A stretch of DNA of 64,000 nt from Escherichia coli (GTDB taxonomy: Bacteria > Pseudomonadota > Gammaproteobacteria > Enterobacterales > Enterobacteriaceae), in assembly GCF_048403405.1 (NCBI RefSeq), contig NZ_CP183129.1, one strand, 5' to 3'. Each line of letters opens with the position of its first letter. Position 1 is the stretch's first letter. The translations under genes were made by a program, and so were the position numbers. Positions 27,325-29,547 of this stretch are shown here, in pieces. The notes below the pieces were generated by a model, which was not told the origin of the DNA, made no database searches, and saw only the letters and a list, made by a program, of their open reading frames with translations.

Positions 27325-29547
27325 TTAGTCCTCGTTTACAACCTTTTGCTGGGCGGCTTTTTTGGCCTGAACGCGGGCAATAGCCGCGGCAACTGCCGCT
27401 TTGCGCGGATCAACCTGTTCTTCTGGTTCTGCGTTAGCCTGTTGCTGTTCCAGCTTGCGCGCTTTGGCGCGGGCAATAGCCGCTTCGACGGCCGCTTTGC
27501 GCGGATCAACCTGTTCTTCTGGTTCTGCGTTAGCCTGTTGCTGTTCCAGCTTGCGCGCTTTGGCACGGGCAATAGCCGCTTCGACTGCAGCTTTGCGCGG
27601 ATCGACCTGTTCTTCTGGTTCCGCATTAGCCTGTTGCTGTTCCAGCTTGTGTGCTTTGGCACGGGCAATAGCGGCTTCGACGGCGGCTTTGCGCGGATCG
27701 ACCTGTTGTTCTGGCTCGGCATTAGCCTGTTGCTGCTCCAGCTTGCGCGCTTTGGCACGGGCAATAGCGGCTTCGACGGCGGCTTTGCGCGGATCGACCT
27801 GCTCTTCTGGTTCCGCATTAGCCTGTTGCTGTTCCAGCTTGCGCGCTTTGGCGCGGGCGATAGCTGCTTCAACGGCAGTTTTACGTGGATCAGCAACGGT
27901 TGCTGCGTCGTTAGTTTGCTGCAGTTCTGCCTGTTTCGCTCTGGCTTGCGCTTTACGGGCTTCCCGTGCTGCAATAATTGCGCTGTTATCCGGGCGTTCG
28001 CCCGCTTTAATCACAATAGGCTGTGTAGCCTGGGCCTGTTTCTCTTTCACCCGCGCCAGAGCGGCAGCAATCGCATCTTTATCTTTGGCTGCAGGTTGAA
28101 CGGCTGCGCTCTTATGTCGTTCAAGGCGAGCCGCTTTTTCGCGCTCCAGACGAGCCTGGCGCGCTTCGAAACGCGCTTTGGCTTCTGCGGCGCGCTTTTC
28201 TTCCTGATGAATAGCCGCAATTTCAGCTTTTTCCTGACGGAAATATTGCACCAGGGGAATATTGCTCGGGCAAACCCACGCGCAAGCCCCACATTCAATG
28301 CAGTCGGCAATGTTATGCGTGGTAGCTTTATCGTGTTGCTGACCTTTGCTGAACCAGTACAACTGTTGCGGCAAAAGATCCGCAGGGCAGGCGTCAGCAC
28401 AGGCGCTACACCGGATGCAGCTTTGTTCTTCCTGTGGTTCGCCAAGCTCATTGGCAGAGGGAGCCAACAGACAGTTGGTAATCTTTACGACCGGGACATC
28501 CAGCCATGGCAAGGTAAAGCCCATTAGCGGGCCGCCCATAATCACCATTTGATCGGCAGAGGGGCAGAATCCGGCGTCATTCAATAAATGACGCACTGGC
28601 GTCCCCAGCCGTGCCCAGACGTTGCCCGGGCGAGCGATTGCTTCGCCAGTCAGGGTTACGACACGCTCGGTAATCGGCTCGCCATCAATAACGGCACGTT
28701 TCACTGCATAAGCAGTGCCGACGTTTTGCATTAATACGCCGATATCGGATGAACGCCCGCCATGTGGAACCTGCTTCCCGGTCAGAATGTAGGTTAATTG
28801 TTTAGCACCGCCAGAAGGATATTTGGTTGGAATCACCCGCAGAGAAATATCGTGAGAGTCCGCCAGCACCGCGCGCAGCATGGAAATCGCCTGCGGTTTG
28901 TTATCTTCAATGCCGATAAGAATTTCGCGTGGCTGCAGAATATGCGCAAGAATGCGAATACCCTCTACGACCTGAGCCGCGCAATCCTGCATCAAACGGT
29001 CATCGGCGGTAATGTACGGCTCGCACTCAGCAGCGTTGATAATCAACGTTTCAATCTTATCTCCGCCGCCCTGCAATTTAACACCTGTCGGGAATCCCGC
29101 ACCACCCAGCCCGGCAACACCAAACTGATGAATGCGCTCGATTAACTCTTCGCGACTGCGAGAGCGATAATCGTCCCAGCCGTCGCGCGGGATCCAGCAG
29201 TCTTCGCCATCGGCATCAATAATCACGCTTAATTCAGCTAAAGCTGAAGGATGAGCCGTAGAGTGGGGCGCAATAGCCGTAACGGTACCCGAGGTGGGCG
29301 CGTGAACTGGCAGCATTTTGCCGCGTCCACGGGTAAGCGGCTGGCCGCGCAGTACTTTATCGCCGACGCTAACGCACAACTCACCTTCAGCGCCAATATG
29401 TTGTTTCAGTGGTATGACAAAACGCTGCGCCAGTGGTACCTGGCGCAGGGGCGTACCGTTGGACTGGGTTTTCATCTCCGGTGGATGGATGCCGCCGTTG
29501 AAATCCCAGATTTTATTTTTTCTGAATGCAGAGAATAACTTAAGCAT
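27325..29547 (-). CDS. rsxC: Rnf/Rsx complex subunit C (ferredoxin-like 2x[4Fe-4S], NADH-binding) with repeat-rich C-terminus
   Basis: 740-aa ORF; two CxxCxxCxxxCP motifs; C-terminal 32-aa tandem repeats. Confidence 0.93.
27340..27950. repeat. About six tandem copies of a 96-bp in-frame repeat within the rsxC 3' region
   Basis: GCGGGCAATAGC recurs at 27373, 27469, 27565, 27661, 27757, 27853 (period 96 bp). Confidence 0.9.

Follow-up and report, generated by a model that had tools for sequence, protein, structure and literature searches.

A tandem repeat in RsxC has been described for Erwinia amylovora, in which a unit of 40 aa is present in 0-5 copies among strains and has been proposed as a VNTR marker (PMC10587187). 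The Escherichia coli array analysed here is alike in that it resides in the same protein, starts at the same residue (aa 553) and shares the opening 16 residues of its unit. The E. amylovora unit is nevertheless longer than that of E. coli (40 aa versus 32 aa), and its second half is an Ala/Pro-rich linker (AAQAAPAAADKAAPVQQPAAEQ), whereas the second half of the E. coli unit is Gln/Glu-rich.

The MLVA locus ms11 has a repeat unit of 96 bp and six alleles, with amplicons of 718-958 bp (PMC8215070), and forms part of the Shigella/E. coli typing panel of Gorgé et al. (2008, J Clin Microbiol 46:1026, as cited in PMC8215070). At the DNA level, no difference was found between ms11 and the rsxC array. 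In PMC8215070, however, ms11 is used for its size, as an anonymous marker, with no discussion of the peptide that it encodes.

A relative of known structure is the RnfC subunit of Azotobacter vinelandii. Its C-terminal long helix contacts RnfB and RnfH, and the function of this helix is not understood (PMC12174285), which was the only related statement found in the literature on what the RsxC/RnfC tail does. The alignment of the E. coli protein with A. vinelandii RnfC (8ahx_C) extends to E. coli residue 500, where the A. vinelandii chain (496 aa) ends without a repeat array of the DPRKAAV... type. Because this chain ends before any such array, no solved structure includes the repeats.

Here, a window of 64 000 nucleotides of E. 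coli DNA was analysed, following an earlier note that had drawn attention to repeats in rsxC. The anatomy of the array and the identity of the locus, as described below, are near certain.

Results

The array lies in the 3' region of rsxC

The repeats fall within an open reading frame of 740 codons plus stop (27325..29547, minus strand), which the earlier note had named rsxC, the gene for the NADH/FMN/[4Fe-4S] subunit of the Rsx (Rnf-type) complex. Domain matches and gene order both uphold this name. Pfam searches placed RnfC_N, the Nuo51 FMN-binding domain, SLBB and two 4Fe-4S motifs (PF13375, PF01512, PF10531 and PF12838/PF00037) in residues 14-430, so that the RnfC/RsxC domain set is complete. 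The NCBIfam RsxC equivalog model NF003454 covers aa 12-570 with a score of 868.4 bits against a cut-off of 345, TIGR01945 (rnfC) scored 596.6 bits against a cut-off of 245.95, and the best PDB matches of the protein are the RnfC chains 8ahx_C, 7zc6_C and 9eri_C.

Among the open reading frames of the window, rsxB lies upstream and rsxD, rsxG and rsxE lie downstream on the same strand, and the order rsxABCDGE-nth is annotated at the identical locus of strain TUM14771 and in K-12. The placement of rsxC on the minus strand corrects the earlier note. Judged from its reading frame and the annotation of the identical locus, rsxD (26266..27324, minus strand) begins directly after the rsxC stop codon and thus forms a fixed 3' boundary of the array. 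The rsxC gene of the window (2223 nt) is 100% identical to the annotated rsxC of the complete genome of strain TUM14771, and rsxC of K-12 MG1655 is likewise 2223 nt long with 5 units. The K-12 product is annotated as 'SoxR [2Fe-2S] reducing system protein RsxC'; NADH-linked electron transfer and SoxR reduction are its putative role according to that annotation and the published literature.

Anatomy of the repeat array

Tandem Repeats Finder returned a single array (27374..27892) with a period of 96, 5.4 copies, 91% matches, 0% indels and a score of 807, and a repeat search gave a start-to-start spacing of 96 throughout. Taken with the minus-strand translation, these data confirm the in-frame 96-bp tandem array that had been reported at the RsxC C-terminus. 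The repeat analysis and the unit table define five full units of 96 bp, or 32 aa, at 27412..27891 on the minus strand, which form the variable part of the VNTR locus ms11. In the order of the protein these are U1 (27796-27891), U2 (27700-27795), U3 (27604-27699), U4 (27508-27603) and U5 (27412-27507), and they begin at RsxC residues 553, 585, 617, 649 and 681. A degenerate terminal unit of 28 codons follows from aa 713 (27328..27411, minus strand), with the stop codon at 27325-27327. This terminal unit is present in every allele examined, and is the unit fused to unit 1 in a natural 0-unit allele (L001).

The full units differ pairwise by 3-13 nt per 96 and by 0-2 aa, whereas the terminal unit departs from them at 31-36 positions and has retained no more than the opening ~14 residues. 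The earlier count of about six near-identical units therefore holds for five of them and fails for the sixth; the 32-aa module quoted at that time is the exact sequence of units 4 and 5. Similarly, the period had been read from the 12-mer GCGGGCAATAGC at six sites. The period of 96 is correct, but the 12-mer is exact only at 27373 and 27469, with a one-mismatch variant at 27565, 27661, 27757 and 27853. Even two exact matches of this 12-mer were found in none of 100 shuffles, which excludes a chance origin of the array.

The array is the typing locus ms11

The ms11 primers and unit size given in Table 1 of PMC8215070 were compared with the window. The forward primer site, GAAACAGGCCCAGGCTACAC, is an exact and single match at 28023..28042 on the minus strand (0 expected by chance), and the reverse primer site, CTGGCGCTGGTTATGGGTAT, is an exact and single match at 27277..27296 on the plus strand, within rsxD. 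Between them, these sites predict an amplicon of 766 bp (27277-28042) for 5 units; for an allele of 7 units the prediction would be 958 bp, the top of the published ms11 range. By these primer matches and sizes, the rsxC array is ms11, an already-known typing locus. The identity with a named typing locus had been missed by the earlier note.

Alleles of E. coli fetched from complete genomes carry 0, 4, 5, 6 or 7 full units, all in frame. There are no full units in L001, four in L004-L006 and L009, five in the window, L011, K-12 (L014) and Nissle (L007), six in L003, L008, L012 and L013, and seven in L002 and L010. This comparison of rsxC alleles across E. coli agrees with the earlier suggestion that the copy number is prone to change. 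Five units was the commonest allele in a 60-row sample of a similarity ranking, in which some rows were verified and the frequencies are approximate. The BLAST spans of partial alignments are unreliable as gene lengths in this sample: a span of 2176 (H44 and H46) corresponds to 2319-nt genes of 6 units, and a span of 2179 (H51) to a 2421-nt gene of 7 units. Copy number looked identical within the same-lineage records sampled, and ms11 appears to behave as a slow, lineage-stable marker rather than a hypervariable one.

One natural isolate, E. coli strain 1105, is without all five internal units, and 0-repeat strains of E. amylovora exist; the internal units are thus dispensable for viability. 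The NCBI pipeline calls the in-frame 0-unit rsxC allele a pseudogene.

Many database entries are 'RsxC/RnfC, partial' fragments, and contigs, one of them of 450 kb, end inside the array with rsxD next. That short-read assembly fails at the array, as had been anticipated, is borne out by these entries and contig ends. When the RsxC tail was used as the query, the matches were mostly partial proteins.

The repeat encodes a conserved peptide motif

Comparison of the units with each other placed 78 of the 90 pairwise differences at codon position 3, with a pooled pN/pS between units of 0.047. On this pattern of substitution, the peptide encoded by the repeat is under selection. Similarity within the array is partly kept by gene conversion and unequal crossing-over, so that conservation within one genome is inflated.

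When one unit was compared by phmmer with 1.84 billion representatives, 67 matches were obtained. The full-length ones are all RnfC/RsxC and come from Vibrio, Aeromonas, Pseudoalteromonas, Erwinia and others, with 4-12 matched stretches each. The sequences were then described by the pattern D-[PD]-[KR]-K-[AS]-A-V-[AE]-A-A-I-A-R-A-K-A-[KR]-K at the C-terminus of RnfC. Scanning showed 3-11 copies of a basic, Ala-rich motif of ~21 aa per RnfC/RsxC tail, separated by non-conserved linkers of variable length, with a motif spacing of 27-59 aa in most cases. Across 12 sequences there were 68 instances in 11, the unmatched one being a fragment with a DPQKARV variant (P0166), and RsxC of the window has six instances. 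Ala is invariant or almost so at motif positions 10, 11, 13 and 17, and K5, R14, K16 and K19 are nearly invariant. In a hand-picked alignment of 24 instances the mean column identity was 80%, versus 46-68% identity for the whole proteins. Every functionally named match to a motif profile (the motif doubled to 44 columns) was RnfC/RsxC, in a search that favoured very short, word-dense fragments and cannot serve as an unbiased survey of contexts other than RnfC.

The same motif is found in the RnfC/RsxC tails of Vibrio vulnificus, Aeromonas caviae, Pseudoalteromonas, Celerinatantimonas, Thorsellia, Salmonella, Klebsiella and Pasteurellaceae. In these other gammaproteobacterial proteins the tail length varies within 90%-identity clusters and the linkers differ from those of E. 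coli, whose motif is marked by Glu at position 9 and by Leu-Glu following the basic cluster. Selection acts on the helix motif, which makes up the opening ~21 residues of the unit and is kept in Enterobacterales, Vibrionales, Aeromonadales and Alteromonadales. These orders differ in the sequence and length of the linkers, and hence in the repeat period. Conservation of the first ~21 unit residues across several gammaproteobacterial orders had been overlooked in the earlier note.

An alternative is that the tail is a neutral low-complexity spacer with no sequence-specific role, the copy number of which drifts, and in which the units resemble each other through recent duplication and homogenisation only. 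The natural alleles of 0-7 units, including the clean in-frame loss of all five, are in keeping with such a spacer, as are the 0-5 units of E. amylovora and a tail for which structure prediction is of low confidence and which no family or structure covers. However, the units have diverged by up to 13% in DNA and by only 0-2 residues, which is reflected in the low pN/pS, and the ~21-aa motif is kept in different bacterial orders whereas the linkers and the period are not. Moreover, the invariant Ala and basic residues lie at fixed positions, which points to a packing or contact surface. A neutral spacer is thus a possible explanation, but one that we consider rather unlikely.

Predicted structure of the tail

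In the AF2 model, the ferredoxin domain is followed by a long helix (aa 432-483; 28099..28254, minus strand) predicted with a pLDDT of 75-88, and in the alignment this helix pairs with the C-terminal region of A. vinelandii RnfC. Next, upstream of the array, the helix motif occurs in a degenerate copy (aa 489-506; 28030..28083, minus strand), recognised from the consensus of a gammaproteobacterial RnfC alignment and from an AF2 helix at 492-505; the position of this copy is conserved in the aligned gammaproteobacterial RnfC proteins. Between it and the array lies a conserved, basic 'PDN' helix (aa 519-546; 27910..27993, minus strand; AF2 helix 522-546), and its PDN...R..RK pattern is present in homologue sequences and in the alignment consensus. 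The array itself is modelled with one helix per unit, at residues 554-575, 587-605, 618-638, 650-669, 682-700 and 714-736. Confidence in these repeat helices is only about 60, and the linkers have a pLDDT below 50. Each unit consists of the basic motif, with a net charge of +4, followed by an acidic stretch of ~11-13 residues with a net charge of -4.

Searches of the tail against Pfam at E<=10 gave nothing meaningful, and neither did the motif profile against the PDB, for which the one match was a cullin fragment (E=0.77). The repeat module therefore has no Pfam family, and no solved structure covers the RsxC tail, in line with the earlier remark that the function of the module is unclear.

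The basic helices could conceivably be amphipathic and bind the membrane, holding the peripheral RsxC to anionic lipids, given the net charge of +4 per motif and the place of RsxC on the cytoplasmic side of a complex in the membrane (PMC12174285). However, the motifs combine a low hydrophobic moment (0.19-0.25) with a mean hydrophobicity of -0.08 to -0.32, values that fall short of an amphipathic helix. In addition, each helix offers only two large apolar residues (V and I), and the strongly acidic linkers would be repelled by anionic lipids. Membrane binding is accordingly a very improbable role for these helices.

Overlapping reading frames

Long open reading frames overlap the array, and the earlier note had listed them as frames that are not genes. 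All exist at the positions given there, none reached a Pfam threshold, and all are by-products of the array rather than genes. The antisense frames of 435 aa (27220..28527, plus strand) and of 232 aa (27401..28099, plus strand; Cys/Ser/Ala-rich) gave no Pfam match, and for the same-strand, out-of-frame one of 212 aa (27336..27974, minus strand) only sub-threshold noise was seen, with scores of 20.8 and 17.6 bits against cut-offs of 27. Frames out of register with rsxC show 6.5-9.3 aa differences per unit, versus 1.2 in the rsxC frame. In the antisense frame 27401..28099 the figure is 1.0 aa per unit; this frame shares its third codon positions with rsxC, and its apparent conservation is therefore a by-product. 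As a means of separating rsxC from the shadow frames, codon-position bias breaks down for this antisense frame with its shared third positions. Since codon position alone does not separate the frames, the case for the rsxC frame is built on domain continuity and the cross-taxon motif.

A role of the repeat in the DNA or RNA itself, such as that of a regulatory or structural element of the operon, with the peptide incidental, is highly improbable. In favour of such an element there is only the regular DNA repeat directly upstream of rsxD. Against it, the differences between units are concentrated at synonymous sites, the period differs in other taxa while the peptide motif is kept, and the array is translated within a gene, the match of which to the RsxC equivalog model runs through the first unit. 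Equally improbable is that the copy number of the window is an assembly artefact (a collapse or an expansion) or that an antisense frame is a real gene, for although draft assemblies often break in the array and the units are as conserved in the frame 27401..28099 as in rsxC, the 2223-nt gene is identical to that of a complete genome and equal in length to K-12 MG1655 rsxC, its five units are the commonest allele in the sample, the antisense frames have no family matches, and the conservation of 27401..28099 follows from the third codon positions that it shares with rsxC.

Discussion

The array is very probably best explained as a protein-coding VNTR within rsxC, identical to ms11, the units of which carry a selected helix motif. 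As each unit of 96 bp corresponds to 32 codons, gain or loss of whole units should keep the reading frame, and such changes would arise by unequal recombination or replication slippage between units. From the low-confidence AF2 model, the motif would be a helix and the acidic stretch a disordered linker. The tail of RsxC may then resemble a string of identical helices on flexible spacers, placed after a long helix, the probable counterpart of which rests on RnfB and RnfH in the solved Rnf complex of A. vinelandii.

Given this arrangement, the helices could act as a series of sites at which a protein partner docks or is tethered close to RsxB, the subunit on the ferredoxin side. Candidate partners would be an acidic redox partner or another Rsx subunit, and the copy number might set valency and reach without being essential. 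We put forward this docking model tentatively, as an idea that may well prove wrong. A more specific version of it is more doubtful still: the ~21-residue helix could be an unrecognised, RnfC-specific docking motif, displayed in multiple copies on acidic linkers beside RsxB/RnfB, which captures an acidic redox partner (ferredoxin, flavodoxin or, in E. coli, SoxR) or organises Rnf complexes.

For work on E. coli genomes, the rsxC array is a recurrent break point of short-read assemblies and a source of mis-annotation and of long false open reading frames on both strands. Its practical value is as a lineage-stable size marker, and this has already been exploited as ms11. The role of the conserved RnfC/RsxC tail helix is a modest question about one subunit rather than a new kind of system, and the natural alleles of 0-7 units provide a ready-made series with which the function of the tail helix can be probed. 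If the helix is indeed a docking motif, then these E. coli alleles would tune the efficiency of electron transfer, or the resetting of SoxR, between lineages.

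Identity of the gene and anatomy of the array

The tandem array occupies the 3′ end of a minus-strand open reading frame encoding 740 amino acids (27325..29547). Pfam analysis placed an RnfC_N domain, a NuoF-like FMN-binding domain, an SLBB domain and two 4Fe-4S motifs within residues 14–430, and returned no match for residues ∼440–740. The NCBIfam RsxC equivalog model scored 868 bits against a cut-off of 345, its span (residues 12–570) ending within the first repeat unit. In the window rsxB lies upstream and rsxD, rsxG and rsxE downstream, and a complete genome with the identical locus carries the annotation rsxABCDGE-nth. 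Domains, score and neighbours together uphold the name rsxC given in the earlier note, and translation places the array in frame at the RsxC C-terminus, as had been proposed.

Tandem Repeats Finder detected one array only (27374..27892; period 96, 5.4 copies, 91% matches, no indels), and in a second, independent repeat search every start-to-start spacing was 96, which confirms the 96-bp period. The 12-mer previously used as a marker for that period is exact at 27373 and 27469 and present as a one-mismatch variant at the other four positions claimed for it, and so its value as confirmation was slightly overstated. What had been described as about six near-identical units comprises five full 32-residue units (27891 down to 27412, minus strand, starting at residues 553, 585, 617, 649 and 681) and a degenerate terminal unit of 28 residues (27411..27328, minus strand) that keeps no more than the module's first half. 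The 32-residue module quoted earlier is exactly that of units 4 and 5.

The three further long ORFs reported earlier are present, with no family support; repeats so rich in Ala and in GC leave several frames open. In the antisense ORF at 27401–28099 (plus strand) the third codon positions fall on the same bases as those of rsxC, and by this geometry alone it looks equally conserved, with 1.0 amino-acid differences per unit vs 1.2 in the rsxC frame. A gene caller guided by conservation would be misled here, and any codon-position argument therefore needs domain continuity and cross-species evidence as well.

Copy number of the ms11 locus

The array is an ordinary feature, already known as ms11, a 96-bp-unit locus of the E. 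coli/Shigella MLVA typing panel (PMC8215070); it is real and was correctly read in the earlier note. The ms11 primers printed in that paper, and credited there to Gorgé et al. 2008, each have one exact, unique match in the window, at 28023–28042 (minus strand) and 27277–27296 (plus strand), on opposite flanks of the array. The predicted amplicon is 766 bp, and the 958 bp predicted for a 7-unit allele corresponds to the top of the published size range.

The gene is found in 5,424 of 5,426 complete E. coli genomes. Fourteen alleles were retrieved and translated, and the reading frame was intact in every one. Full units numbered none in strain 1105 (580 aa), four in a15, EC581, M7424 and Nord58 (708 or 716 aa), five in the window, TUM14771, K-12 and Nissle 1917 (740 or 742 aa), six in HB6, F1 E4, GPEC1035 and UPEC 536 (772 or 774 aa), and seven in ST131 strain 4433 and strain C7 (806 aa). 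The array is thus a coding VNTR that stays in frame and differs in copy number between lineages, and the suspected proneness to copy-number change is borne out. In a sample of 60 evenly spaced rows, corrected by verified alleles, approximately 36 carried five units, 11 four, six six, six seven and one none; these counts are approximate because BLAST spans from partial alignments are unreliable. Sampled records of one lineage agreed in count, three rows scoring as O25b:H4-ST131 having seven units and three scoring as HB6/O157:H7 having six (one verified in each case), a pattern suggestive of stability within lineages.

Some units in Nissle 1917, UPEC 536, ST131 strain 4433 and strain C7 are 33 residues (99 bp) long, with QQQQ for QQQ. 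Allele lengths are therefore not all multiples of 96 bp apart (742, 774 and 806 aa), and these units may explain the ‘half’ alleles that gel-based ms11 typing has reported.

The rsxC gene of K-12 MG1655 (L014 2920–5142) is of the same length as that of the window (2223 nt, five units). The two differ at 4.9% of sites in the repeat region and 1.6% in the remainder, and eight of the 12 amino-acid differences fall within the last 188 residues. This excess suggests that units may have been shuffled or converted between alleles, beyond point mutation alone. Changes in copy number itself would arise where units recombine unequally or slip against one another.

In the zero-unit allele (L001 601–2343; strain 1105, NZ_CP023388.1) the start of unit 1 is joined cleanly and in frame to the terminal unit, all five internal units being lost from the 580-residue product. 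The pseudogene label that RefSeq gives it (‘missing C-terminus’) looks like a length-based mis-call of a gene that is not broken. The mutation table of a study of laboratory-evolved, olaquindox-resistant E. coli ATCC 25922 lists a ‘non-frameshift deletion’ in rsxC (PMC7696260), which, judged from that table entry, could be an altered number of repeat units.

The predicted trouble with short-read assembly is also evident. Draft and metagenome contigs, including a 450 kb E. coli contig, terminate inside the array with rsxD next (L016 1–211, L017–L019), and many 55–75-residue ‘RnfC/RsxC, partial’ proteins from E. coli, Salmonella, Klebsiella and Citrobacter are contig-end fragments. The 433-residue metagenomic protein P0094 (source name ‘DUF1192 family’) carries several stretches of one 15-residue sequence amid sequence rich in Arg, Pro and Gly. 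Rather than a protein in its own right, P0094 seems to be an rsxC-type repeat translated with shifts of frame in an error-prone assembly.

A conserved motif within the repeat unit

Codon position 3 holds 78 of the 90 pairwise differences among the five units, and pooled pN/pS is 0.047; the units thus cannot have been copied very recently, and the peptide has nonetheless been kept. When one 32-residue unit was searched with phmmer against 1.84 billion representatives, there were 67 matches, the full-length ones all being RnfC/RsxC (among those named, Celerinatantimonas, Vibrio vulnificus, Erwinia, Aeromonas caviae, Pseudoalteromonas and Thorsellia). By pattern scan these tails carry 3–11 copies of a ∼21-residue motif with four invariant or almost invariant Ala positions and as many such Lys/Arg positions. 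Polar or acidic linkers that are not conserved lie between the copies, and motif-to-motif spacing is mostly 27–59 residues. Mean column identity was 80% across 24 hand-picked motif instances, and whole-protein identity of the aligned RnfC to E. coli is 46–68%. A motif profile search recovered fragments from Salmonella, Klebsiella, Citrobacter, Yersinia, Vibrio cholerae and Pasteurellaceae, and all its functionally named matches were RnfC/RsxC. At the level of sequence, each unit pairs a conserved motif, basic and rich in Ala, with an acidic stretch after it; the motif peptide is under purifying selection and, among nameable matches, specific to RnfC tails.

In E. amylovora, RsxC has a repeat at the same position, with a unit of 40 rather than 32 residues whose first 16 are those of the E. 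coli unit; it varies from 0 to 5 copies among strains, and its use in typing has been proposed (PMC10587187).

Homologue sequences and the consensus of an alignment of gammaproteobacterial RnfC proteins (A1) revealed further conserved tail elements: a degenerate motif copy upstream (residues 489–506) and a ‘PDN’ basic helix, PDN followed by Arg/Lys-rich sequence (residues 519–546; 27910–27993, minus strand). The latter is unlike the repeat motif, is covered by no family, and recurs, usually once, in RnfC tails of Vibrio, Aeromonas, Pseudoalteromonas and others.

Predicted structure and possible roles of the RsxC tail

The AlphaFold2 model of RsxC (10-sequence alignment; mean pLDDT 66.7) has a well-modelled catalytic core, a long helix at 432–483 (pLDDT 75–88) and additional helices at 492–505 and 522–546. 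Each unit contains one helix (pLDDT ∼60), with ∼12-residue linkers between (pLDDT below 50). The motif is thus predicted, at low confidence, to be helical and the acidic stretch to be a disordered linker. Net charge is +4 for each motif and about −4 for each linker. Searches of the PDB and Pfam found no chain or family covering the repeats. A. vinelandii RnfC aligns with E. coli RsxC up to E. coli residue 500, and its long C-terminal helix touches RnfB and RnfH (review, PMC12174285).

With its small residues invariant and its basic positions fixed, the motif may present a contact surface. Near RsxB the helices might offer a series of sites for docking or tethering, with copy number tuning their valency or reach; we offer this reading tentatively. 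Because natural zero-unit alleles show the internal copies to be dispensable, a tail that is largely a neutral spacer is a serious rival; the two readings carry about equal weight, each below even odds. Membrane binding by amphipathic helices is argued against by the low hydrophobic moment of the motif (0.19–0.25).

Docking or spacer, what is added here to a known typing locus is that the part of the unit under selection is a predicted helix motif common to the RnfC tails of several gammaproteobacterial orders.
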